This document shows positions 6,160-27,400 of a stretch of 64,000 nucleotides of DNA, in pieces. Positions within the stretch are counted from its first letter, which is position 1; every line of letters starts with the position of its first letter. The DNA comes from Bacteroidales bacterium. Its GTDB lineage: Bacteria; Bacteroidota; Bacteroidia; Bacteroidales; NBLH01. A model generated the notes under the pieces. The model did no database searches. It worked only from the letters and a program-made list of their open reading frames with translations, and was not told the origin of the DNA. Made by a program: the position numbers and the translations under genes. The DNA is taken from positions 9,691-73,690 of the forward strand of contig JAFGWC010000119.1 of NCBI GenBank assembly GCA_016937695.1, written 5' to 3'.

Positions 6160-8448
6160 TTAGAATAATTCTACTTCAATTTTTTGGATAAATGCAGTAA
6201 GGCTATATCTTTTACCTATTTGTGCTTCTGAAAGAGTTAATAAAACAGAAATTTGATCGCCAAATTTATCAACTATAAATACTTCTGTTCTAGTATTTAA
6301 AAGTGTATCATCGCCATATTTAAAATATCGACCCATATAATCTTCATCTTTATATTCTTCATTTTCAGGAAGTAACTCAGTTATATGCCTGTTTATAACT
6401 TTTTTACCATCAATTGACCATAAATCTTCGGCAGCCTTATTGAAAAACTGGATAATATTATCTTGATTAATTGTTACAACAGCATCTAACATTCCAGCCA
6501 TAGTTTTCTCATTAAGAAGTTTAACAGTTTCAATTTCTCTAAACTGTGCTCTCATTTCTTCTCTGGCTTCTCTAAGTTTTTTTGTTAATTCTTCTTGTGA
6601 TTGTTGTAATTTTTCTTCTTGAGCTCTTAATTTTTGGGTTTGTATTTTATTTTCTTCTTCAAATTTAATTTGATTAGTAATCTCATATCCTATATAAACA
6701 ATTTTCGCAATGTCTCCATACATATCTCTAACAATAGAATATGTTCCATGAAACCATTTTTCACCGCCACTTTCAGCAATCATTTTCAATCTTCCTTCGA
6801 AAGAAGCTCCTGCAACAACGTTTTTCCAAATAATTGTAAATTCATTTATTTCAGAAGAATCAATAAAATCAAAAATTGTTTTATCTCTTAACTCATTTCT
6901 CTTATATTCAAGAGCATTTTCAAATTTATCGTTAAAATCAAGCATTTTACCTCCTGGCGAAAATTCAGCTTTTATTGTAGATCTGTTAAGAGCATCAATT
7001 TGTCCAGTATAATCAAGACTTTGTTTTTTCGCATCAGTTGTATCTATTCCAAGGAAAAGTATTTTTTCAGGATTTCCTTCATGATCTCTAACACTAACAT
7101 ATGTAGCCATAGTCCATACATCAGTTCCTTGTTTGGAAACGTGTTTCATGTCGCCTTCAAAATGTTTTCCGCCTTCATTTAGTCTTGCCCAAATATCTTC
7201 AAACCATTCACGGTCTTTTTCGTTAATAAACATTGAAATATGTTGTCCTTCTACTTCTTTATTTGAGCTATATCCTAATTTTTTTAAAAATTTTGTATTT
7301 GCATAAAGCAAAATTCCTTCAATGGTATATTCAGCTCTAATCATTGTATGATTAACCGAATTCGTGAAGCTTATAAATTGTTCGCTTTGTTTGGCCGCTT
7401 CTATCTGAGTTTTCTTGAGTTTTTCCATACTCTCAAGCATCTCTTTTTCCTGCATTGCCATTTTCTCTTGAGTTCCTCTGGAATCATAAAGCAACTGAGA
7501 TGTTTGCATATTAATTTTCAAACTTGAAATAGTAGATGCGATACTTTCTGCAACTTTTTCAACAAGTTCTATTTCAAATGATTCGAAAGTTTTAAAAGAT
7601 GCAAGTTCTACAGCTCCAAAAACCTTTTCGTTTACTAGAAGTGGAACAATTAGCATACTTCTTGGATTGGATTTACCAAGTCCTGAAGTTATTTCGACAT
7701 AGCTTTCATTAACCTCGTCTAAAAAAATTGTTTTTTTCTCTAATATACATGCTCCAACTAGACCTTCTCCCCATTCAAAAACTTTATCGCTAAATTTATT
7801 ACGTCCATATGCAAAAGCTCCTGTTTGTTCAATAATGAGATTTTCAGGTTCAGAATCATTTACAACATATATTCCAACAACTTGAGATTCAAGATATTGT
7901 GAAAGATTGCTAACAACGCTGTAAGAAAGGGCTTCTAAATCGTTACTTGTTTCTCGTAAGATTGCACCAAATTTTGCAATTCCTTCTGTAATCCAATGTC
8001 TTTGATCGTCTTCTTTCTTTCTGAAATTGGCTTCTTCTTCTTTCTGCTTTAATTCATTTCTAAGGTTTACCAATGATTTGGAAAGTTCATTATTCATTCC
8101 AAGCACATCATCCTCTACAAAATTTCCTTTTCTAAGCTCTTCTGTAAATCTAAAAACACTTTTTGTTTTATCTTTTTCTTGACTTAGTTCTTCAAGCAAT
8201 TTTTCTTTTGTGTCGGAATATAATCTTCCAACAAAATAACCAATTATTGTAAATGCAGCGATAACAGAAAAGTCAAAAAGTAAATTTACGGGATTATCTT
8301 TATAATATTGATATACACCATATAATGAAAAGCGATAAGAATTGTTCAATAATCCGTTGATTATAAAAATTATTCTAATCAGCACTCCAAGTACTAATCC
8401 ATTTATACTATTTCTAATTATATAATCTTTATTTTCGGATTTATTCAT
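6160..8448 (-). CDS. Membrane-anchored GAF + multi-PAS coiled-coil signalling protein with no recognisable output domain
   Basis: N-terminal hydrophobic helices; GAF (WGEGLVGAC..EITSGLG..LIVPL..GAVELAS); three PAS/PAC repeats (ANTKF..LGY, NDKF..LEY, FNKAAE..W); ends EVELF. Confidence 0.8.
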   Translation of the reverse strand: MNKSENKDYIIRNSINGLVLGVLIRIIFIINGLLNNSYRFSLYGVYQYYKDNPVNLLFDFSVIAAFTIIGYFVGRLYSDTKEKLLEELSQEKDKTKSVFRFTEELRKGNFVEDDVLGMNNELSKSLVNLRNELKQKEEEANFRKKEDDQRHWITEGIAKFGAILRETSNDLEALSYSVVSNLSQYLESQVVGIYVVNDSEPENLIIEQTGAFAYGRNKFSDKVFEWGEGLVGACILEKKTIFLDEVNESYVEITSGLGKSNPRSMLIVPLLVNEKVFGAVELASFKTFESFEIELVEKVAESIASTISSLKINMQTSQLLYDSRGTQEKMAMQEKEMLESMEKLKKTQIEAAKQSEQFISFTNSVNHTMIRAEYTIEGILLYANTKFLKKLGYSSNKEVEGQHISMFINEKDREWFEDIWARLNEGGKHFEGDMKHVSKQGTDVWTMATYVSVRDHEGNPEKILFLGIDTTDAKKQSLDYTGQIDALNRSTIKAEFSPGGKMLDFNDKFENALEYKRNELRDKTIFDFIDSSEINEFTIIWKNVVAGASFEGRLKMIAESGGEKWFHGTYSIVRDMYGDIAKIVYIGYEITNQIKFEEENKIQTQKLRAQEEKLQQSQEELTKKLREAREEMRAQFREIETVKLLNEKTMAGMLDAVVTINQDNIIQFFNKAAEDLWSIDGKKVINRHITELLPENEEYKDEDYMGRYFKYGDDTLLNTRTEVFIVDKFGDQISVLLTLSEAQIGKRYSLTAFIQKIEVELF

Positions 8449-8645
8449 GTTTTTTTATTATTGCATTTATCAAAATAATAAGAAATGATATACTTTTTTA
8501 ATTATTTTACAAATACTGTACAAATTAGTAATAATAATAAAAAAAAATGATTTTTTAAACATAACTTTAAAAAAATCACAAATAGTTTACTTTTACAAAT
8601 ATTAATAAAAATTTTCAGAAAGATAAATTTTTAACAAACAAAAAG

Positions 8646-9023
8646 TTAATGTTTTAGATATTTATCAATAAGTTTACTAAGTTTATCCACAGAATAAGGT
8701 TTCGAAACAATTTCATTAAATCCTGCAGTATTAATATCGTCGCCATAGTCGGTAGGATTATGTGCGGTTAGTGCAATAACCGGAAGTTGACTTGTATTAC
8801 TTTGCATCTCTTTTCTTATGTATCTTACTGTTTCTATACCATTCATTACAGGCATTTCTATATCAAGAAAAACCATCCCAAATACTTCAGTTTCTAATAA
8901 TTTTATTGCTTTTTGTCCATCAGCAGCAGACTCAGAGTCAATTCCCAAGCTTTCCAGAGTTGAGCTTAATAGAAGTCTATTTGAAAATATATCATCAACG
9001 ATTAATATTTTATTAGTTTTCAT
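8646..9023 (-). CDS. Single-domain response regulator (REC)
   Basis: IVDD, FLDIEMPVMNG (phospho-Asp), ALTA, SKPY. Confidence 0.92.
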   Translation of the reverse strand: MKTNKILIVDDIFSNRLLLSSTLESLGIDSESAADGQKAIKLLETEVFGMVFLDIEMPVMNGIETVRYIRKEMQSNTSQLPVIALTAHNPTDYGDDINTAGFNEIVSKPYSVDKLSKLIDKYLKH

Positions 9024-9046
9024 CTCAAAATTATTAAAAATAATAA

Positions 9047-10315
9047 TTATTCTTCTCTTACATCAATTTTTTCAATATTCTCTTCAACTTTATCGTCAAT
9101 GTTTTCTTGTTCAATTATCTCTTCTAAGTATAAAGTTTTAATTTCTTTTTGTTTCCAAAGCTTTATAGCTTCTTGATTTATTTCTTCTTTTGCATCTTCA
9201 ATTTGTTTAATTAAACTTTCATTGTTTCTTTTCTCAGAATCAACTTGAAGGATGTTTTTTTGTTGAAGTAGTTCTATATAATTATTAGCTAATGTTTTAG
9301 CTTTTATCTTTTGCTTTTTGTATTCAACCATTTTTTCATACTCTTCTTTTTCTATAAGCTCATCATAAGCTCCTCTTCTTGATAATAATTTAACTAATAC
9401 TGGTGCTGATTCAATTAAAACAAAAAGCAAGAATATAAACCAACTAGCATATTTAACAGTACTACTTTTATTGCTTAACACCGACATTGCTTCTAATCTG
9501 GCTAAAAGTCCATCTGCATTTTTTATTTCAGTTTCACTTAATTTTAGTTGCTGATTTTTTATTTTAGAAAGTTCATCTATTTGTTTATTGTTTTTTTCTA
9601 TTAATAAATTGTTTCTTTTACTTAATTGTGTCAATTCATAGTCGATTTTGTCATATTCTTGTTTTTTTTCTATATAAACAGGTCCTTTTCCAATTACACC
9701 GGTTGGGCTTTTCCCTTCTGCTTCGACTATAATCATATCAAATAACTTCTTACGAAATTCTTCTTTTACTATTATTTCATTTTTTAATTTAAGATTTTCG
9801 TTTTTTAAAACATCTATTTCATTAAATTCCTGTCCTACTAAATCACTGTATTTAAGCGTATTCTCAACTGTTAAGTTTTGTAATACTCCATTAATTTCTT
9901 TTTCAAAAAGTTTTAATTCTAATGGTTTTGAAATAACAACTGCAAGTAAAACAGCAAGCAATAATCTGGGTATTGAAAATAATAATTCAGAAAAAACTTT
10001 TTCTTCTTTTTTAAGACTAGAAACAATAAACCAATCAAGAAAAAATATCAAAATTCCCCAAAAGACACCAAATATAATTGAAATTGCGAGAGAATTAAAA
10101 ATCATGAATAACGCATAAAATCCTGTAATAGATGCCATTATGCCTGTTAGAAAGATAATTACGCCAATCCCCAAAAACTTATTATAATCGGTAGGGCAAC
10201 TTTTTAATAAATACAATCTGGCTCCTGAGCACCAACTAAAGAATCTGTAAAAAAATCCCATTTTTATATTACCTATATACATTGTATCAGGCTCACTGTT
10301 AATAGTTTCTTCCAT
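9047..10315 (-). CDS. DUF4407-family membrane coiled-coil protein
   Basis: WCSGA, LDWFIVSS, PRLLLAVLLAVVISKPLELKLFEKEI, GKGPVY, IESAPVLVKLL; 3 TM, coiled coil, then 1 TM. Confidence 0.8.
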   Translation of the reverse strand: MEETINSEPDTMYIGNIKMGFFYRFFSWCSGARLYLLKSCPTDYNKFLGIGVIIFLTGIMASITGFYALFMIFNSLAISIIFGVFWGILIFFLDWFIVSSLKKEEKVFSELLFSIPRLLLAVLLAVVISKPLELKLFEKEINGVLQNLTVENTLKYSDLVGQEFNEIDVLKNENLKLKNEIIVKEEFRKKLFDMIIVEAEGKSPTGVIGKGPVYIEKKQEYDKIDYELTQLSKRNNLLIEKNNKQIDELSKIKNQQLKLSETEIKNADGLLARLEAMSVLSNKSSTVKYASWFIFLLFVLIESAPVLVKLLSRRGAYDELIEKEEYEKMVEYKKQKIKAKTLANNYIELLQQKNILQVDSEKRNNESLIKQIEDAKEEINQEAIKLWKQKEIKTLYLEEIIEQENIDDKVEENIEKIDVREE

Positions 10316-10334
10316 AAATATTACTTTTGAAGAA

Positions 10335-10342
10335 CAAATTTA
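10335..10342 (-). promoter_or_regulatory. Putative -7 element (TAAATTTG) upstream of the DUF4407 gene
   Basis: TAnnTTTG in the 42-bp cheB-DUF4407 gap. Confidence 0.4.
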
Positions 10343-10357
10343 ATAAAATTAAACTAA

Positions 10358-11440
<1,083 letters not shown>

Positions 11441-11461
11441 CTAAATTATCCCTTTCTACAA

Positions 11462-11469
11462 CAAATCTA
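11462..11469 (-). promoter_or_regulatory. Putative -7 element (TAGATTTG) upstream of cheB
   Basis: TAnnTTTG in the 73-bp cheD-cheB gap. Confidence 0.4.
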
Positions 11470-11513
11470 TAAAATTTTAAGCTATTTTGCAATTGATGAT
11501 TCTTGTTTTTTGA

Positions 11514-11990
11514 TTATTTCTTTTCACCAACATATTTCTGTCTTACTTCACCAGTATAGGTATCAAAAATAATTTTTCTTCCTAGTTTTCCGCCTAAACT
11601 TGAACTTAGAATCTGTATATTTTCTTCGTGAAGTATGTCTTTTGCAATACGAATATTTCTTTCGCCAATCATAAACTGGTTTATGTTTGTGGCAATTATC
11701 TCGGCACCTCCAAAAATTTTAGCTTTAATGTTAGATCTAGAGCTACCAAGAGCTTCCAACTTTTCAATTATTTTTTTTATTGCAATATTTCCATATCGTG
11801 GAGAAGCAAGTCCTTGTCCATTCCATAGAGGTAACATAAAATGATTCATTCCACCAATTTTTATAACAGGGTCGTATAAACAAACAGCAACACATGAACC
11901 TAATATTGTAGTAATATAGTAAGGTTCTGTATTTGCAAAAATTGCGCCCGGATATAAAAAATGTTTTGGTCTTTCCATATTATGAAACAT
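11514..11990 (-). CDS. cheD: Chemoreceptor glutamine deamidase
   Basis: TTILGSCVAVCL, GGMNHFMLP, AKIFGGA, IGERN. Confidence 0.95.
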   Translation of the reverse strand: MFHNMERPKHFLYPGAIFANTEPYYITTILGSCVAVCLYDPVIKIGGMNHFMLPLWNGQGLASPRYGNIAIKKIIEKLEALGSSRSNIKAKIFGGAEIIATNINQFMIGERNIRIAKDILHEENIQILSSSLGGKLGRKIIFDTYTGEVRQKYVGEKK

Positions 11991-12883
11991 TAAAAAATTT
12001 CATCATCACCAAAAATCATTTCATTTCCATCTGCAGAGAAAGAACCTGTTTCTTGATCAGGTTCGGGTATTGATACTGTGAAGACAGTGCCTGAATTTTT
12101 TTCGCTTTTTATTTTTATATCTCCATCTAAAAAATCTAATATGGCTTTATTAATAGATAAACCTAGACCATGTCCTCTATTTAAAGAATTAATACCACTA
12201 TCTAATCTTTTAAATCTATCAAAAATTACTTGCTGATTTTTTTCGGAAATACCAATTCCAAAATCTTGAACTGAAATAAATAACTCTTTTCCTTCGAGCC
12301 ATCTTCTTATAATAATTTTATTGTTTTTACTGAATTTTACAGCATTATCAACCAAATTAGATAAAATAATTCTAAGTTTTTCTGAATCTGTTTTAAATGT
12401 AAAACTTCGGTCTTCACCGTTATCAGTAATAAATTCAAATTTCAATTGTTTTTTTTCAGTTTCAGGAGTGAAAGACTCAATAACAGATTCAATAAGTTGA
12501 TCGACTTTTACATTTGAAACTTCCATAAATAATTCACCTGATTCAATTTCAGCAGCGACAAAAATATTTTTTAGCTGAAAATCAAGATTAAAAGCTTCTG
12601 AATGTATTAATCTAGCCATTCTATTAACTTTTTCCCAGTCGCCTTCTTTTACAAGCGTGATATTTTTTGAAAGAACAACAATTGAAGTAAAAGGATTAAC
12701 TATTTCATTCGTTATATTTGAAATAAAATGGCTTTTAAGTGCTTCAGATTCACCTAGTTTTTTATTAACTTCCTTGAGTTCTTTTGTCAGCTTTTCTAAT
12801 TTCTCCAATGAGTTTTTCTTTTCTTCAAACCTAATCTTTAACTCTTCGATTAAAAGTTCGTCAGTTATTTTTATATTACTCAT
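11990..12883 (-). CDS. Sensorless HisKA/HATPase_c protein with H-box His replaced by Asn (probable pseudokinase)
   Basis: H-box reads FISNITNEIVNPF; N box NLVDNAVKF, G1 DFGIGI, F box IFDRF, G2 GHGLGL intact. Confidence 0.85.
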   Translation of the reverse strand: MSNIKITDELLIEELKIRFEEKKNSLEKLEKLTKELKEVNKKLGESEALKSHFISNITNEIVNPFTSIVVLSKNITLVKEGDWEKVNRMARLIHSEAFNLDFQLKNIFVAAEIESGELFMEVSNVKVDQLIESVIESFTPETEKKQLKFEFITDNGEDRSFTFKTDSEKLRIILSNLVDNAVKFSKNNKIIIRRWLEGKELFISVQDFGIGISEKNQQVIFDRFKRLDSGINSLNRGHGLGLSINKAILDFLDGDIKIKSEKNSGTVFTVSIPEPDQETGSFSADGNEMIFGDDEIF

Positions 12884-12903
12884 TTTATAATGTTTTAAAT
12901 ATA

Positions 12904-13749
12904 TTATTCTCTTATATAAATTGTTGGTTTAACTTGCTTTAAAGGAGCTTCAATATTTGTAATTGACTCTGAATGCCCTAAGAAAAAATATCCTCCTGGT
13001 TTTAAATTATTACATAATTTATTAATAACTTTTTCTTGAGTTTCTCTATCGAAATAAATAAGTACATTTCGGCAAAAAATTATATCAAACTTTTCATTTA
13101 CAGCATAATGGTCATCCATAAAATTTAATCTTTGATATTTTGTCTTTTTTCTGAGATTAGCATTAACTTTTACAAGTTTCTTTGATTTATCTTTGCTTTT
13201 CATTAAATACTTTCTCTTTATATCTATAGGAATCATGGAAACAGCTTCCTCCGGATATACTGCATCAAATGCTTTTTTTAGCACAATTGTTGACAAATCT
13301 GTTCCAAAAATTGAAAAATCGAATCCTGGATTTTTCGATGCGAATTCGCTTAAAACGATTGCAAGTGTATATACTTCTTGACCGCTGGAACAACCGGCAC
13401 TCCATAGTTTAACAAATTTATTTTCCTTATATATTTTAGAAAGCACTTCATTTGTCAAATAATCAAAATGTGTTGCTTCTCTATAAAAATCCGTTTTATT
13501 AGTAGAAACAACATCCATCATATGAACTACTTCTTCTTGTCCATCTTTACTGAAAACAAAATCTACATATTCCTTAAAAGTATATATTTTTAAAGCTCTA
13601 AGTCTTTTCTGCAACCTACTTTGAAGCATAATTCTTTTAGCAGGAGGCATTTTTATACCATATCTAGTATATATAAATTTACTTAATTTATCAAACTCAA
13701 TATCAGTAAGTTTTGCTGCAAATATTTTCTGTAGGTCTATTTCTTCCAT
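12904..13749 (-). CDS. cheR: Chemotaxis protein-glutamate O-methyltransferase
   Basis: STNKTDFYRE, WSAGCSSGQEVYT, DIIFCRNVLIYF, LGHSES. Confidence 0.97.
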   Translation of the reverse strand: MEEIDLQKIFAAKLTDIEFDKLSKFIYTRYGIKMPPAKRIMLQSRLQKRLRALKIYTFKEYVDFVFSKDGQEEVVHMMDVVSTNKTDFYREATHFDYLTNEVLSKIYKENKFVKLWSAGCSSGQEVYTLAIVLSEFASKNPGFDFSIFGTDLSTIVLKKAFDAVYPEEAVSMIPIDIKRKYLMKSKDKSKKLVKVNANLRKKTKYQRLNFMDDHYAVNEKFDIIFCRNVLIYFDRETQEKVINKLCNNLKPGGYFFLGHSESITNIEAPLKQVKPTIYIRE

Positions 13750-13767
13750 AAAGAAAAAAAATATTCA

Positions 13768-15948
13768 TTAAAACTTTTCAAATTCATCATCACTATCTTC
13801 ATTCCCAAGATTAAAATTGAATCCTCTTTTTATGTCTTTAGGTTCTTTCGGCAATATTTCTTGCGTTTTAGAAATTTTCTTTTCTATTTTGGATTCAAAA
13901 TCTATTTTAAAATCTTTATTTTCTTTTTGTTCCAATTTTTCATCATATTCATTGTCATCTTCAATTTCTTTCATATCAGATTCAAAATCAGAAAAATCAT
14001 TAATTTCTTCTTTGTATTTATAATTAGAATTATCTATATCATCTTCATTTTGGGCAAAATCATTATTTTCTTTTTCATTATTTTCTTTATCTAAATTGAA
14101 AAACCCAATGAGCTTAGTTAATTCATCGGCATATGAATTAAGAGCTTCAACGTTCATTGCAAGTTGTTCTGCACTGGCTGCATTTTGTTGAGTAACATTG
14201 TTTAATTGTTGTAAAGCATTGTTAATCTGATCAGTACCAGCTCTTTGCTCAAGACTTGCATTTGTGATTTCTTGAACTAAAAGTGCTGTTTTTTTAATAT
14301 CCGGTACGATTTGGTCTAATAATTCTCCTGATTTTTTTGCACTTATAAAGCTTTTACTTGTTATATCATTAATATCGGCAGCAGCAACTTTTGAATTATC
14401 TGCTAATTTACCAACTTCTTTAGCAACTACTCCAAAACCTTTTCCATATTGTCCAGCTCTAGCAGCTTCAACAGAAGCATTAAGAGCAAGTATATTTGTT
14501 TGAAAAGCAATATCTCCAATTATAGATATTTTTTTTGCTATATCACCCATTGCACTGGTTGTAGCAATAACATTTTTACTACTAATTTCAATACCTGTTG
14601 CTGATTTTTGTGCCATAGCATCTGCTAGTTTTGAATTTTCAGCATTTTGTTCGATATTAGCATTAAGCTGCTCCATAGAGGCAGAAACCTCTTCGGTAGA
14701 GGAAGCTTGTTCTGATGCACCTTCGGATAATTTTATTGCTGTTTCAGATAAGGCATTACCAGATTTATATAAGTCTTCTGTTGTTTTTTTAATGTTTTTT
14801 ATTATTTCAAAAAACTTATCAACCATTGTTTGCAAGGATTGGCTTAAATCTTCAATTTCATCATTACCGACAACTTCAAAACTCACGTCTAAATTTCCTT
14901 GTGCTACTTTTTCTGCAATTTTGGATAATTTAAAAATTCTGGTTATAATTTTATTTGTATATATATATGCAATTGATAGCGCAAGAAGTAAAATTAATGA
15001 AACTAACCCTATTCTTTTTCCAAGTAACCAATTTGTGTCTTTAAGTACTGATTTTTCAGGTACTTTTATTATAACATACCACGCTTTGTCAACTCCTTCA
15101 AAATTAACAGGAACTGTAAATTTAAAATCTCCTTCTTCGAGAACTTCAATTTCATTAAAGTTCTCGAATAAATCATCTTTTTGATATCCATTTATGATAT
15201 CAGTGATATTTTTTCCAACATTGGCTTTATTTTTATTATCTGCATTTATAATTCCACCGTCAGAAACAATAAATATTTGGGCTGCTCCATTAAATAGTTC
15301 AGTGTTTGAAATATAGTTTTGAATCCAATCAATTGAAATATCAACACCTAATACTCCTGAAATTTCATTGTTACTATATATAGCCTTGCCGTATGAAATC
15401 ATTAGTAAAGAATCTCCTTCAAGAAAATCTTTATAGGGCTCAGTAAAAATTTGTCCATTATGTTGTTTTAAATAAGAAACAACATCAGATTTAAAATTGT
15501 AGTTCCATCTATCTAAATATGAATAAACACCTTTTTTATTTATATATTTAAATGAAGTTAAAGTTTCATTAGTTCCACTATTATCAATTTTATTAAAATG
15601 ATTAGGTAAAAAATTCAAAAAAACTGTCAGGACTTGTTTGTTTTCAATCAAAAATTTATTTTCCATTTGGTGTATTTGTTCTAAATCAAAATTACTTACA
15701 CCATTTTCATCCATTGTAGAAGACAATATATCTGTAAAAGTATTTAGTGCTTTAAAAACCTGATTTAAGTCTTGTCCAATGCCTTTAGAATAAATTTCAG
15801 CATTAGTTTTTGCATTAGTTTTTGCAAGTATTATTGCATCATCTCTCAACTTTAATGAAGAAATAATTATAACAATTATTATTGGAACTAAAACACTTAA
15901 GCCTATTATTGATATTAATTTCGTTCTTATTGAACCTGTATTTTTCAT
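13768..15948 (-). CDS. Methyl-accepting chemotaxis protein (TM-dCache-like-TM-HAMP-MA) with C-terminal pentapeptide EFEKF
   Basis: IAFQTNILALNASVEAARAG hairpin tip; TEPYKD Cache-like motif; HAMP DEIEDL; acidic linker. Confidence 0.95.
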   Translation of the reverse strand: MKNTGSIRTKLISIIGLSVLVPIIIVIIISSLKLRDDAIILAKTNAKTNAEIYSKGIGQDLNQVFKALNTFTDILSSTMDENGVSNFDLEQIHQMENKFLIENKQVLTVFLNFLPNHFNKIDNSGTNETLTSFKYINKKGVYSYLDRWNYNFKSDVVSYLKQHNGQIFTEPYKDFLEGDSLLMISYGKAIYSNNEISGVLGVDISIDWIQNYISNTELFNGAAQIFIVSDGGIINADNKNKANVGKNITDIINGYQKDDLFENFNEIEVLEEGDFKFTVPVNFEGVDKAWYVIIKVPEKSVLKDTNWLLGKRIGLVSLILLLALSIAYIYTNKIITRIFKLSKIAEKVAQGNLDVSFEVVGNDEIEDLSQSLQTMVDKFFEIIKNIKKTTEDLYKSGNALSETAIKLSEGASEQASSTEEVSASMEQLNANIEQNAENSKLADAMAQKSATGIEISSKNVIATTSAMGDIAKKISIIGDIAFQTNILALNASVEAARAGQYGKGFGVVAKEVGKLADNSKVAAADINDITSKSFISAKKSGELLDQIVPDIKKTALLVQEITNASLEQRAGTDQINNALQQLNNVTQQNAASAEQLAMNVEALNSYADELTKLIGFFNLDKENNEKENNDFAQNEDDIDNSNYKYKEEINDFSDFESDMKEIEDDNEYDEKLEQKENKDFKIDFESKIEKKISKTQEILPKEPKDIKRGFNFNLGNEDSDDEFEKF

Positions 15949-15997
15949 TATATTTTTTTGTTAAATTTTTGTTTCAAATATCATCCTTGTTAATTCA

Positions 15998-16492
15998 CTA
16001 TGTTTCAGGCATATCATCAAGAAGCATAGATGCATGATCGAATGCAAAAATTTTATCCATATCAAGAATCATTATAAATTTATCTTTTGATTTTAAAAGT
16101 CCTGTAATAAATTCTGATTTATATTTAGTTCCTACACTTAACGGCGGTTGAATTTCATTTTCTTTAACTTCTATTACTTCCTCAACAGAGTCAACTATTG
16201 CACCAACTTCAACCATTTCATTATCGATAAGTACTTCTAAAACAAGAATACATGTTTCTTTTGTATTTTCAGATATAATTTCATTAAATTTCATTCTTAT
16301 ATCGATAACACCAAGAACACTACCTCTAAGGTTAATAACGCCTTTTAGAACATCACTAGATTTAGGGACTTTAGTTATAGGCACTAATTCCAAAATATTT
16401 AAAACCTTACTAACATGTACAGCAAAAAACTCATCGCTTAATTTAAACGAAAGGTAAGAATTCGTTAATTGATCAATATCTTCATCTATCAT
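15998..16492 (-). CDS. cheW: Chemotaxis coupling protein
   Basis: YLSFKL..FAV, ITKVP, GVINLRG, IVDSVEEV. Confidence 0.95.
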   Translation of the reverse strand: MIDEDIDQLTNSYLSFKLSDEFFAVHVSKVLNILELVPITKVPKSSDVLKGVINLRGSVLGVIDIRMKFNEIISENTKETCILVLEVLIDNEMVEVGAIVDSVEEVIEVKENEIQPPLSVGTKYKSEFITGLLKSKDKFIMILDMDKIFAFDHASMLLDDMPET

Positions 16493-16503
16493 AATACTAA
16501 TAT

Positions 16504-18528
16504 CTAATTTTTAAATGAAAATTCATGTATAATTTTATTTGTGTCTAAAACTAAAGCAATAGTTCCATCACCAAGAATAGTTGCACCAGAAATTATTTCA
16601 TGGTTTTTGTATAATTTCCCAAGAGGTTTAAGCACTGCCTGATATTCACCTATAACATCATCAACGGCTAATCCTATTTTTTTATCTTCATATTTTACAA
16701 TAACCATTTGCTCAACTTCAAGAGGTTCTGTGTCAATTTCAAATTCATCTCTTAAATAATAAAAAGGTATTTGTTCGCCATCGATAATAATTATATTATT
16801 GTATGCTTTTTTAAAATCTTGATGATTAACTGCATAAATTTTATTTACAAGATTTAAAGGCATAACATATTTGGTATTTCCTATCATAACTAACAAACCA
16901 TCAATAATTGAAAGCGTTAATGGAAGTTTTATAGTAATAGTTGTCCCTACGTTTGTTTTTGAATCTAATTCTACAGTGCCTCTAATTTCTTCAATTTTTC
17001 TTTTAACTACATCCATTCCAACTCCTCTTCCTGACACATCGGTAACATTTTCAGCAGTTGAAAATCCGGGCAGAAAAATAATATCTAAAAGTTCTCTTTC
17101 TGTTAATTTGCTATCATGCTGAATTAATTCTTTGCTTATTGCTTTTTGCCTTACTTTGGCTAGGTCAATTCCTTTTCCATCGTCTTGAATTTTAATAACT
17201 ACATTTGCTCCGGAATAATATGCTTTTAAATATATCATTCCTTTAAGTGTTTTCCCTAATTTCACTCTTTCTTTTTCAGATTCAATTCCGTGATCTACAC
17301 TGTTTCTGATTATATGCATTAATGGGTCTGTAAGGCCTTGTATTAATGTTTTATCTAGCTCTGTTTCAGCGCCTTCTGTAATAAAATCTATGTTTTTACC
17401 AAATTCTGTAGATAAATCTCTAATTAACCTATGGAAACGCGTTAACATTGTTTCTATTGGGATAAGAGATATATTGAAAGCGGTGTCTCTTAATTGTCTT
17501 GTAATATTTTCAATATTTTCGGCAAGTTGATTAAGTTCTTGAACTTTATTTTCTTCAACAAAAAGGCTCAAACTTGCTTGTGAAGTAACTAGTTCACTAA
17601 CTAAATTCATTAACTCATCTATTTTATCGGATGAAACTCTGATGCTTGAAATTACATTTTCTTTTGTAAATGTACTCAGTTTTTCAGTAACTGTATCTAT
17701 TTTATTTTTTTTCTCTTTTTCGTAATTATTAATAAAGGGACTTAATATACTTAAATCAAAATGAGATTTTTCATCAAAAAGGTCTTCTATTTTATCTAAA
17801 ATTTCACTTTCAGATAAAATATCAAAATTTGCAATATTTGAAATTTCTAGTTCACTTTCGTCTTCAACAAAAATAAAAACATCTTGAATTGATGCAACTG
17901 GTTCTTTAGTAACTAAAAATACTTCCCATGAAGTGTAGCATTTACTGAAATTAAATTTTGAAAGAAGAGGGATTTTTTGAGTTCGAGTATATACATTACA
18001 ATTTCCAATAGTATTTAATTCATCTAAAAGATATAAAGGGTTGGTTCCGTTATCCATAATGGATTCATTGGGTCCAAAATAAATATAGAATGTTTGAACA
18101 CTTTCTTCTTTTTCGGTTTCAGGGATTTGTGTTTCAATAATTTTTTTATCGTGTTTTTTTAAAATTCCTTCAACTTTGCTCAATAAAATATTATGATTTT
18201 TACTAATTTGTTCATTTTTTAAAGCTTCAGGATCTAGTAAATTTCTTAAATGGTCTACCGATGAGAAAGTAATACTGAGTAATTCTTCAGTTACTAATAA
18301 ATTCCCATTTCTGATTTCATCATAAATTGTTTCAAGATTGTGTGTAAAATTACTGATTTCATCAAATCCAAACATTCCTCCTCCTCCTTTTAAAGAGTGC
18401 ATAATCCTAAAAACAGAGGCAACTATCTCTGTATCTTTAGGTTGTTTTTCAAGAGAAAGTAAAGCTTGTTCCAAATCATTAATTAAATCGGTAGCTTCTT
18501 CAATAAATTTTTTTTGAAAATTATCCAT
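16504..18528 (-). CDS. cheA: Chemotaxis histidine kinase
   Basis: HPT FRIMHSLKG, dimerisation DELMNLVSELV, HATPase RNSVDHG/DDGKG/SGRGVGMDVV, C-terminal CheW domain. Confidence 0.97.
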   Translation of the reverse strand: MDNFQKKFIEEATDLINDLEQALLSLEKQPKDTEIVASVFRIMHSLKGGGGMFGFDEISNFTHNLETIYDEIRNGNLLVTEELLSITFSSVDHLRNLLDPEALKNEQISKNHNILLSKVEGILKKHDKKIIETQIPETEKEESVQTFYIYFGPNESIMDNGTNPLYLLDELNTIGNCNVYTRTQKIPLLSKFNFSKCYTSWEVFLVTKEPVASIQDVFIFVEDESELEISNIANFDILSESEILDKIEDLFDEKSHFDLSILSPFINNYEKEKKNKIDTVTEKLSTFTKENVISSIRVSSDKIDELMNLVSELVTSQASLSLFVEENKVQELNQLAENIENITRQLRDTAFNISLIPIETMLTRFHRLIRDLSTEFGKNIDFITEGAETELDKTLIQGLTDPLMHIIRNSVDHGIESEKERVKLGKTLKGMIYLKAYYSGANVVIKIQDDGKGIDLAKVRQKAISKELIQHDSKLTERELLDIIFLPGFSTAENVTDVSGRGVGMDVVKRKIEEIRGTVELDSKTNVGTTITIKLPLTLSIIDGLLVMIGNTKYVMPLNLVNKIYAVNHQDFKKAYNNIIIIDGEQIPFYYLRDEFEIDTEPLEVEQMVIVKYEDKKIGLAVDDVIGEYQAVLKPLGKLYKNHEIISGATILGDGTIALVLDTNKIIHEFSFKN

Positions 18529-18617
18529 TTTAGATAAATTTAACTTAACTGAAAATAAATTAGGTTTTTACACCTTTAAAATTAATAACACTCTTAAAAA
18601 AGTTACAATTAATAAAG

Positions 18618-18983
18618 TTATCTCATAACTTTATTAATTGCAGCTAAAAGTTTGGCTGGCACAAAAGGTTTAATAATCCAACCGGTAGCACCTGCATCTT
18701 TAGCTTCCATTTTTTTATCACGTTGCGATTCTGTTGTTAAAAATAATATAGGAATTCTTGTATAATCATTAATTTTCCTTACTTCTCGAATAAGTTCTAT
18801 GCCATTCATATTTGGCATATGCAAGTCTGTAAGTAATAAATCAATAATTTGTCCATCGAAATGCTTTATTGCATCTTGTCCATCGATTGCAACAATTATA
18901 TTATAACCTGCATTTTCTAAAGTAAAACTTACTACTTCGCGAATACTTTCTGAATCATCAACAATTAAAATAGTTTTAGCCAT
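18618..18983 (-). CDS. cheY: Chemotaxis response regulator
   Basis: IVDDS, TDLHMPNMNG, LTTES, GATGWIIKPF; directly upstream of cheA. Confidence 0.9.
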   Translation of the reverse strand: MAKTILIVDDSESIREVVSFTLENAGYNIIVAIDGQDAIKHFDGQIIDLLLTDLHMPNMNGIELIREVRKINDYTRIPILFLTTESQRDKKMEAKDAGATGWIIKPFVPAKLLAAINKVMR

Positions 18984-19017
18984 GATTAATTAAATTAAAT
19001 GTTTTTACAGCTATATA

Positions 19018-19338
19018 TTATAGAGATTTTATAATACTTGTTAAGCCTGAAATTTGTAATAGTTCTAATATATCTTTTGATAGATCAATATTAAATGAAA
19101 TCTTTTTATTGTGTGAAATACAAGTGTTTTTTAATGAAACAAGAAGTTGAATTGTTGCCAAATCGCAAACAGTAACATCATTAATATTTATCACAAGATT
19201 TTCATAATCTTTTTCTGCAGTTTTCAGATTTTTAACTACTTCTTTTAAATTATTAACACCCAAATCTCCACCCATAAAAATTTGTACTTTTTTATCTCCT
19301 TTTTTTGGCGCTTGAATTCTAAAATTAATATCTTTCAT
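19018..19338 (-). CDS. STAS-domain protein of the chemosensory cluster
   Basis: ~106 aa, GDLGV..., DLATIQLLVSL, LLQISGL; upstream of cheY-cheA. Confidence 0.75.
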   Translation of the reverse strand: MKDINFRIQAPKKGDKKVQIFMGGDLGVNNLKEVVKNLKTAEKDYENLVININDVTVCDLATIQLLVSLKNTCISHNKKISFNIDLSKDILELLQISGLTSIIKSL

Positions 19339-19458
19339 TTGTTATATTTTATTTATATATAATGTCAAATGGAACATTCAAATTATTAAAATAAAAAACT
19401 CAACTCTTATTTTTTCATCACTTAAAATTTTTTAAATATATTAACTTAAAATATATTT

Positions 19459-21255
19459 TCAAAAAAATTCAATTTCATCATCATTTTCAGAGTCAAGATC
19501 TTCGTTTAATACATTACCATGAATAATCCTTTGGCTTTCCATAGTATATCTTTCTTTTATTTTATCAAGACTTTCATGTGACTCTTCTAGTTTTGTAACT
19601 GAAGCGTCATCTCTTATAGTCAAATATATATTATTTAATTCAAGTATTATTTCTTCAATAACTTTTTCAAAAAAGTCATAATATTTTACTTTTTCTATTG
19701 AACTTTGTATGTCTAGTGCTAATTTACTACCTAATTGTCCGTTTTGTTTTAAGATATTTTCAATGCTCGAGTTATTTTCATTTAAAATATTTACAATAGA
19801 ATATATATTTTCAGATAATTGCTTTAAATTAGATTTAAAATTATTTTCTTTATAAGCATTACTTAAAGTTTCTAATAGATATAATTCATCATAATTTTTC
19901 TCAAAATATTTTTTTGTTTGACTTAATTCTTCCTCGATGTTAAGATTAATTTCAACGATTTGTTTTTTTAATTTTTTCAATTCAGGATATACACTAGCAT
20001 CTCTGCATAATTCTTCAATTATTTCATCGAAATTAGTCTTGAAATTTTTTCTGCTTTCACAAGTTTTTTCCAGATCATTTTTTATATCAATAAAAGTATC
20101 TTTTACATTACTGATTTTTATATCAAATTCTTCACCATTAATTGCAAATTGATTAATTAATTCTACTGATTTTTCTAATTTGTTTTCAATTTCTCTAAAA
20201 TGTGTTATTCCAAAAATAGGATTATGCCCTGAAAAAGAAGTGCACATTGATGAAATTACTTTCATATCTTCACCAATTTCCATAAAATTTTTAGTGATTT
20301 TTTCAATTGCATCCTGATATTCTTGATTTGTGTATATAAGTTGAGCAACTTGTATTCCGGCGATATCTCTAATTTTTAAAAATTTCTTAGTTTGCTCAGT
20401 AAGTTCAGTTTTTTTATCTTTATAATCAAAGTCGTTGAGTTCATCAATTATCTCTTTATGAGTTTGCTGAACATGTTCCATTTTTTGTCTGATAATATCA
20501 TGAAATTGTAAATTTGTAATAATTTTGCTTACATTTTCAAAATAGTTTTCAGTTTTTTTTGCTAAAATAGGCATTTGAACAGATGCTTCCTGATGTTTAG
20601 CTGTTAAAATTGTAACACTTGATTTAATTTGCTCTAAAATTGCTTCAAGAGTATAGTTTTGTTGCTCTTTAAACTCATTAAAAAAATTCAGAACTGACTT
20701 AACAATTACTTTTACTTTATTATTCTTTTCATTAAAAGAATCATATGTATCTTTTATTATTTTAATTTCTATAATTACTTTATCAATTTTTTGAATTATT
20801 TCTGTTTTATCAGGATTGTAAGAAAGATTTAACTTTAAGTTTGCAAACAAAAAATTAAGAGTCATCAAGTTTTGATTGAAGTTCTTAACCGGGATAAACA
20901 TGGCGTTAAGAGTGACTTGCATTGAATCTAATATTTTAGCCGCTTTTATAACGCTATTTAAAAAATCATCAATTTGAAGTTTTAAACCTAAATGAAATGA
21001 ATCTAGCTTTTTCAATAAGTAATTTCTATCTTTTCCAGCTAATATTTCAAAAAGTTTATTTGCGTTTCCTGAAATATCATTGGCAATTTTAGAATTATCT
21101 TTCAAATTTGAATTTAATAGTAAGAAATCCTTTGAAGAGGATTCGTTTAATGCAGTAATCTTAACATCAATGTCTGATAATAGAATAATGATTTCTTTTA
21201 TCGAATCCCTATTGAGAGAAAATCTATAATTACTAGTCTTCATATCATCGCCCAT
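19459..21255 (-). CDS. Cytoplasmic MCP-like coiled-coil protein with CheZ-like DxxxQ motif
   Basis: All-helical, no TM; LQFHDIIRQKMEHV; RYTMESQRIIH; ends DDEIEFF; first gene of the cluster. Confidence 0.65.
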   Translation of the reverse strand: MGDDMKTSNYRFSLNRDSIKEIIILLSDIDVKITALNESSSKDFLLLNSNLKDNSKIANDISGNANKLFEILAGKDRNYLLKKLDSFHLGLKLQIDDFLNSVIKAAKILDSMQVTLNAMFIPVKNFNQNLMTLNFLFANLKLNLSYNPDKTEIIQKIDKVIIEIKIIKDTYDSFNEKNNKVKVIVKSVLNFFNEFKEQQNYTLEAILEQIKSSVTILTAKHQEASVQMPILAKKTENYFENVSKIITNLQFHDIIRQKMEHVQQTHKEIIDELNDFDYKDKKTELTEQTKKFLKIRDIAGIQVAQLIYTNQEYQDAIEKITKNFMEIGEDMKVISSMCTSFSGHNPIFGITHFREIENKLEKSVELINQFAINGEEFDIKISNVKDTFIDIKNDLEKTCESRKNFKTNFDEIIEELCRDASVYPELKKLKKQIVEINLNIEEELSQTKKYFEKNYDELYLLETLSNAYKENNFKSNLKQLSENIYSIVNILNENNSSIENILKQNGQLGSKLALDIQSSIEKVKYYDFFEKVIEEIILELNNIYLTIRDDASVTKLEESHESLDKIKERYTMESQRIIHGNVLNEDLDSENDDEIEFF

Positions 21256-24404: not shown

Positions 24405-27400
24405 ATGAAAAGTAAAAATTTAAAATTTTGGATTTTAATTTTAGGGCTTCATCTAATTTTTATTAATCAAATATTATCTCAAAATAAAGTAAAAATTGAT
24501 TACAATACATTTGGAGCACTAAATGCAAGGCATATTGGTCCTGCAGGAATGAGCGGAAGAGTATCTGCACTTGATGCAGTAGATACTGATCCAAGGATTA
24601 TATATATAGGCTCGGCAAGTGGCGGACTATGGAAAACAAAAAACGGCGGAACTACTTTTAAGCCAATTTTTGATGAATATACTCAATCGATTGGTGCTGT
24701 TAAAATAGACCAAAAAAATCCGGATACAGTTTGGGTTGGAACCGGCGAAACTTGGGTAAGAAACAGTGTATCAATAGGAAACGGCATTTACAAAACAACA
24801 GATGGTGGCGAAAACTGGAAATTTCTCGGATTAAAAGAAACAGAAAGAATTGCCAGAATTGCTATTGATAAAAATAATTCTGATGTAGTTTATGTAGCTG
24901 CACTTGGTCATTTATGGGGACCAAATAAAGAAAGAGGTCTTTACAAAACATCTGATGGTGGAAAAACTTGGGAAAATATTTTATATGTAGATGAAAATAC
25001 TGGTTGTACTGATATTGCAATAGATACTGAAAATCCAAATATTTTATATGCCGCAATGTGGGAATTTCAGCGAAAAGCATATACTTTTAATTCAGGCGGA
25101 AAAGGAAGCGCACTTTACAAATCAATTGATGCCGGAAAAACATGGGAAAAATTAACAAAAGACCTTCCAACTGGCATTCTTGGCAGAATTGCAATTAGTG
25201 TTTCCTCAGTTAATCCAAATATTGTTTATGCATTAATTGAATCAGAAAAAACAGCACTTTATCGCTCAAAAGATAAAGGTATAAGTTGGGAAGAAATGAA
25301 CAAAACAAGAGCTGTTTCTGAACGTCCATTCTATTTTTCAAATATTTTTGCCGATCCAATTGATACAAACAGAGTTTATAAACCCGGTTTTGGAATAACA
25401 GTTAGCGATAATGGCGGTAAAAACTTTAGCGGAACATCAATTGAAGGCGGAAACTTCCACAGCGATTTGCATGCAATGTATATTGGCAAAAAAGATAATA
25501 ATCTGATTTACATTGGCACAGATGGCGGTTTATATATTTCTGCAGATAAAGGAAATACATGGCGAATTGCTAGAAACCTTCCATTATCTCAATTTTATCA
25601 TGTAAGCGCTGATATGCAATCTCCTTACAATGTTTATGGCGGTTTACAAGACAATGGTTCGTGGTATGGCCCTTCAAAAAGCCCTGGAGGAATTACAAAT
25701 TATGATTGGAAAAGCATTGGTTTTGGCGATGGTTTTTGTGTTTATTCTGATCCAAAAGATAATAATATAATTTTTTGGCAATATCAAGGAGGCGAAATTG
25801 CCAGAGCTTACGCTAAAACAAACGAATTTAAATCTATAAAACCATACAAAACAGCAGAAATCGAAGATTTAAGATTTAACTGGAATACTCCGGTTATTTT
25901 TAGCCGAGATGGAGAAAGAATGTATGTTGGCTCACAATATCTTTATGTAACTGAGAATAAAGGAGATAGCTGGAAAAGAATATCACCTGATTTAACAACA
26001 GATAATCCGCAAAAGCAAATGCAAGAAAAATCCGGCGGTTTAACAATTGATAATTCAACAGCAGAAAATCATTGTACAATTATTACTATAAACGAATCGC
26101 CTTTAGATAAAAATATTATTTGGGTTGGCACCGATGATGGCAATATTCAAGTTACTAAAGATGGTGGAAAAACTTGGGCAAATGTTATTCAAAATATTAG
26201 TGAACTGCCTGTAAATACATGGTGTTCATATATTGAACCTAGTAATTTCGATAAATCTACTGCATACGCCACTTTTGACGGTCATTATAATAACGACATG
26301 AATCCATATATTTATAAAACAACAGATTTTGGTAAAACATGGATTTCATTATCAGACAATAACTTAAACACAAATAATCATATTATTAAACAAGACTTTA
26401 TAAATAAAAACTTATTGTTTTTAGGTACTGAATTTGGATTATATGTTTCTATAAACGACGGTAAATTATGGTCGAAATTTAAAGGTAATGTTCCAAATGT
26501 ATCAATAAGAGACATGGTTATTCATCCTCGCGAAAATGATTTAATTTTAGCAACTCATGGTCGCGGCATATTAATTATTGATGATATAAGCCCGTTAAGA
26601 AACTTAAAAGAAGAAACCTTAAATTCAGATTTAACGTTCTTAAAATCAAACGATTATATTATAAATGATTTAGGAATGACCCAAAATTTTGAAGGCGATG
26701 ATGAGTTTAGAGGTCAAAATCCACCTGAAGCAGCTACAATTACATATTACATGAAAAAACGCCATATTTTTGGTGAAATGTATATTGAAATTTTTGATAA
26801 AGATGGAAATAATATAAAAAAATTACCTGCAGGAAACAGAAAAGGAATAAATAAAGTTGTTTGGCGATTAAGGAAAAAACCGCCAAAAGTTCCTGCATCG
26901 CCTCAATTAGCTGGCTTTGCAATGCAAGGTCCACTTTATCCGGCAGGCGAATATACTGTAAAACTTACAAAAGGTGAAGATGTTTATGAATCAAAAATAA
27001 ATATAAAACTTAATCCAAATTCGCCACATTCAGAATCAGATCGAATATTTAGGGCAAAAGTTGTAAATCAGGCCTACGATTTATTAGAAAAATTAGCTTT
27101 TATAGATGCTCAAATAACTGATATTAGAGATAAATCTAAAACTGAAGCAAAAACAGCTTCAAAAAGCTTAAGTAAAAAGCTAAATACTCTTTACGATAAA
27201 ATGGAAACACTTCATAAAGAGTTAGTTGCAACCAAAGAAGGAGATATTACAGGCGAAGAAAAGTTAAGAGAAAAAATATCTCAACTTTACGGTTACATAA
27301 TGTTTTACAAAGGCAAACCAACTGATTCTCAGGTTCAAAGACTTAAAGATTTAGAGAAAATCATTGAACAAAAAAATAATTATTTGAATGATTTGATTAA

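Follow-up and report, generated by a model that had tools for sequence, protein, structure and literature searches.

We analysed a window of 64,000 nucleotides (nt) from the genome of a Bacteroidales bacterium (the whole stretch of DNA considered here: assembly GCA_016937695.1, contig JAFGWC010000119.1, forward-strand positions 9,691 to 73,690) and focus on a cluster of 13 chemosensory genes at window positions 6160-21255. All 13 open reading frames (ORFs) are on the minus strand, and the spacing between neighbours ranges from a 1-nt overlap to 197 nt (Table 1; genes are numbered g01 to g13 from upstream to downstream). A first-pass annotation, made from the sequence alone, had listed 13 co-oriented genes over this interval, and both the coordinates and the gene list are borne out by the ORFs and by Pfam, which names 12 of the 13 genes with E-values from 8e-07 (STAS) to 2e-80 (DUF4407). 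The cluster is bordered by a divergent OmpH gene upstream and by the topoisomerase IV genes downstream. According to Pfam, no receiver of the cluster is fused to a GGDEF or HTH output domain. Scanning this AT-rich cluster for promoters and terminators was uninformative (110 promoter-like sites versus 98.7 expected, and a single terminator-like site, on the opposite strand).

Table 1. Genes of the chemosensory cluster and other features of the window (positions are those of the window; MCP, methyl-accepting chemotaxis protein; T9SS, type IX secretion system)
Feature	Positions	Strand	Product	Domain evidence
g01	19459..21255	-	598-aa all-helical protein of a large unnamed Bacteroidota family	no Pfam or NCBIfam family
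g02	19018..19338	-	STAS-domain protein (anti-sigma-antagonist fold)	Pfam STAS_2 8e-07, STAS 8.5e-05
g03	18618..18983	-	CheY, single-domain response regulator	Pfam Response_reg 8.5e-28
g04	16504..18528	-	CheA histidine kinase	Pfam Hpt, H-kinase_dim, HATPase_c and CheW domains
g05	15998..16492	-	CheW coupling protein	Pfam CheW 1.1e-29
g06	13768..15948	-	transmembrane MCP, 34H class	Pfam MCP-like_PDC_1, HAMP, MCPsignal
g07	12904..13749	-	CheR methyltransferase	Pfam CheR 2.7e-59, CheR_N 4.3e-15
g08	11990..12883	-	HisKA-type kinase look-alike (DHp + CA)	HATPase_c 9.8e-24, without HisKA match
g09	11514..11990	-	CheD receptor deamidase	Pfam CheD 1.9e-26
g10	10358..11440	-	CheB methylesterase with receiver	CheB_methylest 2.2e-67, Response_reg 5.6e-24
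g11	9047..10315	-	DUF4407 membrane and coiled-coil protein	Pfam DUF4407 1.8e-80
g12	8646..9023	-	second single-domain receiver	Response_reg 6.1e-25
g13	6160..8448	-	transmembrane-GAF-PAS-PAS-PAS sensor protein without output domain	GAF 5.8e-12, several PAS families
BNR-repeat protein	24405..27494	+	1029-aa BNR/Sortilin-Vps10 repeat protein	
HAMP-SpoIIE protein	51975..53672	-	565-aa membrane protein	HAMP, SpoIIE (PP2C serine phosphatase)
PorP/SprF	60403..61413	-	T9SS membrane protein	
PKD-repeat protein	61690..63999	-	PKD-repeat protein, runs off the window end	CHU_C T9SS signal

The cluster encodes a complete chemosensory core, namely CheA, CheW, an MCP and CheY together with CheR, CheB and CheD. 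H44 of CheA aligns with the phospho-accepting H48 of Escherichia coli CheA, D9, D10, D53, T83, W102 and K105 of CheY match the active-site and switch residues of E. coli CheY, and D11, D56, S180, H206 and D302 of CheB align with the catalytic and receiver residues of the E. coli enzyme. The alignments confirm the residue types, and the E. coli catalytic residue numbers are those that we take to be standard; the earlier statement that the catalytic motifs of CheA and CheB are intact is thereby upheld. CheY has a mean column identity of 87% across 34 orthologues. CheR aligns with the pentapeptide-dependent CheR of E. coli without gaps through the beta-subdomain, in a comparison set that held no pentapeptide-independent CheR.

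The same core is the only one in the genome. The window lies on one contig (C5) of an assembly of 3.95 Mb, for which completeness is 99.6% and contamination 1.1%, and in this assembly both tblastn and PF02895 return one match to CheA. When all 13 proteins were used as tblastn queries, we found one CheD, one DUF4407 protein, one g01 and one full CheB. The coupling proteins and receptors are more numerous. There are five CheW-domain matches (CheA, the CheW of the cluster and three further CheW genes on contigs C159 and C91) and 19 MCPsignal matches. Leaving aside three fragmentary matches, all 16 full-length MCPs carry one 7-residue deletion per arm in comparison with E. coli Tar and Tap (36H), and two symmetric deletions of this kind place them in the 34H class. 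In other words, a single CheA is shared by many receptors, which have the same length class. The in-cluster MCP, g06, has a long acidic linker and the pentapeptide-type tail EFEKF, so that the pentapeptide MCP of the first-pass annotation is confirmed; a long linker with such an end is found in only 2 of the 19 MCPs of the genome, the other being encoded on contig C159 (DFERY).

The latter receptor belongs to a second receptor locus (C159:24062-32171), which consists of a Crp-family gene on the opposite strand, an MCP gene, two CheW genes, the DFERY-tailed MCP gene, another MCP gene and a gene for a single-domain receiver. In relatives, a Crp-family gene and receiver genes lie directly upstream of g01, and therefore this genome seems to split one system over two loci. 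A further contig (C60:71922-74108) has adjacent CheR-like and CheB-methylesterase-like segments on one strand, with ~30% identity to the cluster enzymes. They probably represent a CheB/CheR-domain fusion of the kind often joined to PAS-kinase modules.

As for the class of the system, the genes are arranged in the order STAS-cheY-cheA-cheW-MCP-cheR-(g08)-cheD-cheB, where g08 is inserted between cheR and cheD. Published articles are cited here by their PubMed Central numbers and for the passages available to us. The same order, apart from g08, is described for stage 1 of the ancestral F7 systems of gamma-proteobacteria, the function of which is stated to be unknown (PMC7184735). F7 receptors of this stage are 36H, and those found here are 34H, a minor receptor class that has been assigned to F8; the F8 receptor of Pseudomonas syringae likewise bears a pentapeptide (PMC11253619). 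An array built of 34H receptors would be expected to stand about 20 nm tall (PMC11253619). Pentapeptide receptors are reported to be abundant in Bacteroidetes (PMC7390727). The resemblance to F7/F8 systems that had been proposed thus holds on two counts, the F7 stage 1 gene order and the F8-type length of all 16 full-length receptors. In NCBIfam only generic CheA models match g04, and both matches are under their cut-offs.

Motility genes of the host genome were examined as well. The window had been noted to lack FliM/FliN and pilus genes, and this extends to the genome as far as the marker families are concerned: FlhA (PF00771), FliG_C (PF01706) and the PilB/PilT/GspE-type ATPase (Pfam T2SSE) gave no match in the assembly, in searches that returned the expected matches in control genomes. 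CheZ, CheC and CheX likewise have no match in the genome at E<=0.1. The T9SS parts that had been recognized in the window are indeed there, a PorP/SprF protein and, beside it, a PKD-repeat protein with a CHU_C T9SS signal (61690-63357; Table 1 gives the extent to the window end). Elsewhere in the genome we found GldM (178 bits), GldB (244 bits versus a cut-off of 190) and a full-length GldJ-like gene that scores 428 bits, just below the strict cut-off of 458. The gldB and gldJ genes mark gliders. With GldB, a GldJ-like protein, GldM and PorP/SprF, the genome thus has the gene content, and we speak of genes only, of a gliding-competent T9SS-bearing member of the Bacteroidota.

We next consider how the cluster is distributed. 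A CheR query, with one genome per species, yielded loci from 275 relatives, of which the best 80 were compared; the counts below refer to loci with enough DNA on the relevant side. All of the best 80 belong to Bacteroidota. They come mostly from metagenome-assembled genomes of Bacteroidales (among them Tenuifilaceae, Salinivirgaceae, Marinilabiliaceae and Paludibacteraceae), and some from Flavobacteriales and Sphingobacteriales. The full cluster is also carried by the cultured Perlabentimonas gracilis (locus L024), which the title of its description, as cited in PMC11122141, calls 'a gliding aerotolerant anaerobe'.

Within these loci, CheD is present in 66 of 67, CheB in 62 of 66 and an upstream CheA in 52 of 63. 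The accessory genes, which the first-pass annotation had regarded as part of the system, for the most part travel with this core: the His-less kinase g08 directly follows cheR in 72/74 loci, a STAS-sized small ORF stands just upstream of cheY in 48/52, the GAF/PAS protein g13 is encoded within 2.5 kb after cheB in 45/55, and g01 precedes STAS-cheY in 35/47. This did not hold for the DUF4407 gene, which directly follows cheB in 20/60 loci and is a clade-specific addition. A g12-type receiver occurs in 33 of the 80 loci and in 27 of these 33 is divergent and upstream. Conservation of accessory genes together with an intact core is an observed property of the system, and neither of the two checks suggested with the first-pass annotation, for flagellar genes in the genome and for accessory genes beside the core elsewhere, went against its reading.

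Genome samples drawn evenly from the phylum (301), the class (401) and the order of the window (201) give a wider view. CheA was found in 76/301 genomes of the phylum and CheD in 5/401 genomes of the class, as against 72/201 in the order, including both other genomes of the same genus. FlhA is absent from all 201 genomes sampled in the order. A GldJ-like gene (E<=1e-60) is present in 165 of the 201, namely in 69/72 CheD-positive and 96/129 CheD-negative genomes; the three CheD-positive genomes without it are 74-94% complete. Fisher's test of this association gives 8e-05, which is overstated, as related genomes are not independent. One T2SSE-family ATPase (E<1e-100) per genome was seen in ~16 genomes of the order. 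It is enriched in CheD carriers (12 of the ~16), 60 of the 72 carriers being without it.

The first of the three conserved partner families to be considered is g08. It had been labelled a His-less kinase, and correctly so: its H-box, ITNEIVNPF, has Asn at the position of the His of HisKA kinases, and Pfam HisKA does not match it. Models of the PhoR/PnpS/TorS type in NCBIfam match residues ~43-273, and tblastn aligns residues ~26-273 with many kinases of its own genome. By these matches, g08 is homologous to HisKA kinases across the DHp and CA domains. N59 (the His position), N63 and P64 of the H-box are conserved in 76/76 sequences and E60 in 75/76. The residues of the ATP-binding N, G1 and G2 boxes (N176, N180, D207, G209, G211, G237, G239 and G241) are all conserved in 76/76. 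A nearby histidine, His52, is not conserved and is replaced by Asn in the Flavobacteriales sequences. The C-terminus is always an acidic stretch with a final Phe, and the stop codon overlaps the start of cheD. Since the phospho-accepting His is lost in 76/76 sequences, g08 is not a two-component kinase. In HisKA proteins the T/N of the E/DxxT/N motif (+4) is required by the phosphatase activity alone; kinase activity requires the acidic residue beside the His (PMC3510030). The pseudokinase had been put forward as an output or extra-input module; its motifs point to signal termination instead.

The first gene, g01, had been called MCP-like, a label that could not be confirmed. No Pfam family matches the protein, hhalign against the MCP signalling domains of the same genome gives a probability of 1.7% (E 0.03), and MCPsignal is matched weakly in 4/34 family members. 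The AlphaFold 2 model (mean predicted local distance difference test score, pLDDT, of 78.5) is all helix, with residues 551-598 disordered; this acidic tail ends in EIEFF, which is pentapeptide-like. The most conserved element is IITNLQ[YF]xD[IV][IV]xQK, containing the invariant helix Q-[YF]-x-D-[IV]-[IV]-x-Q, and D253 and Q257 are invariant in the alignment of the locus orthologues (37 in the loci). In a library of 1.8 billion proteins, the family has 618 representatives at E<=1e-30. Among the best 150 of these 618, the DxxxQ motif is present in 149, and ~143 end in [LIV]-E-[LF]-F or a version with Phe at the first position. All relatives that carry a name are 'hypothetical protein' entries from Bacteroidales or Bacteroidota. 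In CheZ, and in HisKA_3 kinases such as NarX, the catalytic pair is DxxxQ (PMC3510030).

Structure-based searches added little on g01. A profile search of its alignment against the PDB returned only coiled-coil designs and biased MCP matches, and Foldseek of the model against the PDB gave no match at E<=0.001. An Atlas search provided leads only, its look-alikes including a cluster named as an MCP family (score 0.94, MCPsignal in 38% of members). A predicted complex of g01 with CheY received weak support, with a score of 0.59 (runs 0.47, 0.60 and 0.59) versus 0.00 for the highest-scoring of three controls; at least 80% of contacts are common to the runs, and the partner pLDDT is no lower than 86. 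The mark used for such complexes was reached by 58/80 solved complexes and 2/110 mismatched pairs, a calibration that is only rough here because own alignments were used. Scores at or below 0.60 comprise only 7 of the 80 solved complexes along with both passing mismatches.

The C-terminus of g13 is conserved as TAFIQxI[ES]V[ED]LF, and 45 of 45 complete orthologues end in [ED]-[LF]-F (a 46th that we compared is cut by a contig end). A C-terminal motif is thus common to g01 and g13; it is similar to the MCP pentapeptide, except that its position 2 is aliphatic. According to NCBIfam the last PAS domain of g13 resembles the PAS of FixL/DosP. The position of the proximal His is apparently Asp when the alignment is read by eye, and we make no claim of a heme sensor. 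In one relative (L043:13631-16701) the g13 orthologue exceeds 1020 residues before the contig ends, and what looks by eye like a receiver-type stretch lies at the cut. A kinase-like gene of 420-680 aa directly follows g13 in ~9 loci (L035, L047, L056, L058, L059, L064, L070, L074 and L076). It may be that g13 derives from, or works with, a hybrid kinase.

The second receiver, g12, has D10, D11, D54, T86 and K108 in alignment with E. coli, and in NCBIfam it is best matched by the receiver portions of hybrid kinases of the ArcB/BarA/TorS type. In P. gracilis its orthologue adjoins the gene of a Crp-family regulator and is oriented divergently from the che operon. What we take to be the phospho-Ser position of SpoIIAA is occupied by Leu in the STAS protein g02 and in its 48 orthologues shown, the D-S reading D-L-[ATGS], and no Ser or Thr is conserved near this site. 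A phospho-switch of the SpoIIAA/RsbV type was accordingly rejected for g02. The DUF4407 protein has an AlphaFold 2 model of pLDDT 74.3 and predicted template-modelling score 0.39, for which Foldseek finds no PDB match at E<=0.001 (the top rows being ABC-transporter helices with template-modelling scores of 0.1-0.2), and it has no PADLOC family, so that no lead to its function emerged.

Based on these data, we propose that this flagellum-less and pilus-less bacterium, with its gliding-type genes, operates a single complete chemosensory pathway of the F8/ancestral-F7 type directed at surface movement. Taken as a whole, with the mechanism outlined below, this proposal has in our view about equal weight for and against it. 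The 34H receptors and the four CheW proteins would form one array with CheA, which would phosphorylate CheY, CheB and probably also g12. Adaptation of the receptors would fall to CheR, CheB and CheD, with the pentapeptide-type tail of g06 as docking site for CheR and CheB, and perhaps also the comparable tails of g01 and g13. Phosphorylated CheY (CheY-P) would then act on something other than a flagellum, the gliding machinery driven by the T9SS being the most probable target, with surface taxis as the result. A cytoplasmic or membrane signal may be fed into the pathway by g13, and g12 may in addition serve as a phosphate sink.

Since no CheZ, CheC or CheX is present, we infer that the signal is switched off by g08, g01 or both. 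The kinase look-alike g08, which keeps E-x-x-N and the nucleotide pocket and is encoded together with cheD, would be locked in the phosphatase state; its conserved motifs bring this role of receiver phosphatase only slightly short of an even balance. Termination of the signal by g01, through the invariant D-x-x-x-Q, is a more doubtful proposition, though one that its most conserved helix invites. Gliding is our tentative first choice for the target of CheY-P, held with somewhat less than even confidence, because one kinase for many receptors is the layout of a taxis system, because a GldJ-like gene is present in 69 of the 72 carriers sampled from the order and because one carrier is a described glider. 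The most specific version of the proposal is that CheY-P from the 34H array biases the rotary gliding motor or the adhesin track, amounting to true surface chemotaxis, and that the His-less kinase and the DxxxQ protein are the phosphatases that end it. We consider this version unlikely, if attractive. Gliding output and both enzyme roles are inferred, the latter from motifs.

Several points weigh against this proposal. Any link between CheY and a gliding protein is hypothetical. The association of CheD with GldJ is modest and confounded by kinship, given that GldJ-like genes are present in 96 of the 129 CheD-negative genomes of the order as well. The partner-switching parts, that is the STAS protein and, in the Flavobacteriales version, a REC-SpoIIE protein, point to a possible non-motility output. 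For g08, the invariant ATP pocket is no less compatible with an enzyme that uses ATP than with a pure phosphatase. For g01, homology to CheZ was considered and rejected: hhalign against E. coli CheZ gives a probability of 0.09, and Pfam CheZ matches weakly in 4/34 members and does not match the window protein. The score of the predicted g01-CheY complex falls in a band where passes would be wrong more often than right unless the prior is high. Finally, the assignment of the system as F8-like, with ancestral F7 as a near neighbour, goes by receptor length and gene order and is tentative.

The alternative to gliding with most to recommend it is a non-motility output, as in systems for alternative cellular functions (ACF), such that the pathway controls transcription, secretion, adhesion or envelope state. 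The route would lead through the STAS or partner-switching-type parts and g12, which is Crp-linked in relatives. We rate this as unlikely on present evidence. The STAS ORF stands upstream of cheY in 48 of 52 loci, and the g12 orthologue in L024 adjoins a Crp-family regulator. The Flavobacteriales cluster (L085:12155-14906), which lacks g01 and g13, has a REC gene downstream of cheB, then a gene for a weakly CheX-like protein (E 0.0024), a 128-aa ORF and, at its end, a REC-SpoIIE (PP2C) phosphatase. A serine phosphatase and anti-sigma antagonists are likewise encoded in the stage 1 F7 clusters of gamma-proteobacteria, systems described as being of unknown function (PMC7184735). The window itself encodes a HAMP-SpoIIE phosphatase ~30 kb from the che cluster, which could be the detached partner of STAS, because the F7 stage 1 and Flavobacteriales clusters include a serine phosphatase. 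Against such an output, the residue to be phosphorylated in STAS is Leu in all sequences shown, with no conserved Ser/Thr nearby, and the receivers of the cluster carry no fused GGDEF or HTH domain. Single-purpose ACF systems usually have one dedicated receptor, whereas one CheA with at least 16 receptors of one class and four CheW proteins is laid out as for taxis.

A similar standing, on the improbable side without being negligible, applies to an alternative that concerns g01 together with g13. Instead of an enzyme and a sensor input, both might be receptor-like docking platforms, whose x-[LIV]-E-[LF]-F ends, as variant MCP pentapeptides, hold CheR and/or CheB. On this view g01 would be a soluble receptor that has degenerated, akin to the McpA-like receptors described in F7 clusters. 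The tails argue for it. An acidic disordered linker precedes the tail of g01, as in pentapeptide MCPs, the [LIVF]-E-[LF]-F end is kept in ~143 of its best 150 relatives, nearly all complete g13 orthologues have V-[ED]-L-F at their end, and a pentapeptide-type tail is present on only 2 of the 19 MCPs. A second, unclassifiable, McpA-like receptor is in fact described in F7 clusters (PMC7184735), and the MCP-family look-alike from the Atlas search is a lead in the same direction. Position 2 of the motif, on the other hand, is aliphatic, and CheR binding is reported to depend centrally on aromatic side chains at positions 2 and 5 (PMC7390727). Nor does hhalign relate g01 to the MCP signalling domains of its own genome, and the most conserved part of the protein is the DxxxQ helix rather than a receptor tip.

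For g08, the alternative to a locked phosphatase is an ATP-using kinase with a new substrate, which might be a His of another protein in trans or a Ser/Thr/Tyr of STAS, CheD, a receptor or g13. This would make g08 a repurposed GHKL kinase, like RsbW/SpoIIAB or the PDK/BCK kinases. STAS proteins are classical substrates of GHKL serine kinases, every ATP-binding residue is invariant (76/76), and the coupling to cheD is tight, with overlapping stop and start codons and g08 preceding cheD in 72/74 loci. The STAS protein of the cluster has no conserved phosphorylatable residue at the canonical site, and nucleotide binding supports the phosphatase state of some HisKA kinases. Moreover, the whole HisKA DHp helix is kept with E-x-x-N-P conserved, and this is the receiver-docking and phosphatase surface of HisKA kinases (PMC3510030). 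We regard a kinase role as quite improbable.

Ordinary flagellar or pilus-based chemotaxis, or a decaying relic without function, is close to excluded: a single T2SSE-family ATPase in 12 of the 72 CheD-positive genomes of the order is what can be said for it, and opposed to it are the occurrence of FlhA in 0/201 genomes of the order, the lack of any FlhA, FliG_C or T2SSE match in a 99.6%-complete genome, the intact state of all aligned catalytic residues, the retention of the cluster in 72/201 genomes and the strong conservation of CheY.

One other gene of the window bears no relation to the che cluster, a BNR/Sortilin-Vps10 repeat protein encoded after a LolA-like gene (Table 1).

How gliding Bacteroidota sense direction is an open question, and the pathway proposed here may show how gliders steer. 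To our knowledge, no che genes are known from Flavobacterium johnsoniae, the model glider. The available passages of a 2025 article state that evidence is absent for a sensory transducer controlling the rotational bias of the T9SS motor (PMC12239597). In the literature covered by our search, which did not extend to subscription journals or to supplementary files, where class tables may already list these genomes, we found no description of a Che system of Bacteroidota or Bacteroidales linked to gliding. The core is a recognisable pathway of the F8/F7 type; undescribed until now are its host setting, the probable output and the three conserved partner families. A complete Che pathway with many receptors is present in about one third of the sampled genomes (72/201) of a flagellum-less order, and nearly all of these carriers have gliding genes. 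The question can be approached by genetics, since one carrier, P. gracilis, is a cultured glider. An answer would give a first function to a system of the F8/ancestral-F7 type and would define three nameless conserved families, those of the His-less kinase, of g01 and of the GAF/PAS protein that ends in VELF. If the proposal is true, the missing sensory input of T9SS-driven gliding would have been identified for a large group of Bacteroidales, together with two new kinds of receiver phosphatase.

Among known systems, the closest in several respects is the F8 system encoded by cluster II of P. syringae pv. tomato, which likewise has a 34H receptor, a pentapeptide receptor encoded within the cluster and its own CheR, and whose role is described as poorly defined (PMC11253619). 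That system is one of four in its host, has a single 34H receptor and operates beside the flagellar F6 system. Here, by contrast, the cluster encodes the only Che core, serves at least 16 receptors in a flagellum-less host and includes g01, the His-less kinase, g13 and the DUF4407 protein. The ancestral F7 systems of stages 1-2, represented by cluster III of Vibrio cholerae and Che2 of Pseudomonas aeruginosa, share the gene order and the pentapeptide receptors, their function being given as unknown (PMC7184735). They differ in that their receptors are 36H rather than 34H, in that no kinase look-alike such as g08 lies between cheR and cheD, and in that they always accompany a flagellar F6 system. 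Their serine phosphatase and second STAS protein are not in this cluster, and a REC-PP2C phosphatase is found only in the Flavobacteriales version. A precedent for contact between a CheY-like receiver and the T9SS motor comes from PorX/PorY and PorL, where the receiver domain binds the cytoplasmic part of the motor (PMC5005315, PMC10951265). PorX is a REC-PglZ protein of a two-component system and not a Che output.

The putative enzymes also have counterparts. With its E-x-x-N-containing DHp and its retained CA domain, g08 is like bifunctional HisKA kinases in the phosphatase state (EnvZ, HK853 and CrdS of Myxococcus xanthus), unlike which it has permanently lost the phospho-accepting His (76/76). 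The acid-plus-amide pairs of g08 and g01 are, in established cases, catalytic signatures of receiver phosphatases (PMC3510030), and putative ones here. Like CheZ, g01 has D-x-x-x-Q on a long helix; unlike CheZ, it is ~600 residues long, and no sequence or profile similarity between the two is detectable. At the level of the whole pathway, the Frz system of M. xanthus provides Che-type control of gliding reversals and so steers surface gliding, not flagella. Its CheA-CheY fusion and single cytoplasmic receptor contrast with the separate CheY and many transmembrane 34H receptors found here, and its motility machinery, Agl-Glt and type IV pili, is unrelated to T9SS/Gld. In principle, nonetheless, the pathway that we propose would be like Frz, in that a Che-type system steers gliding over a surface.

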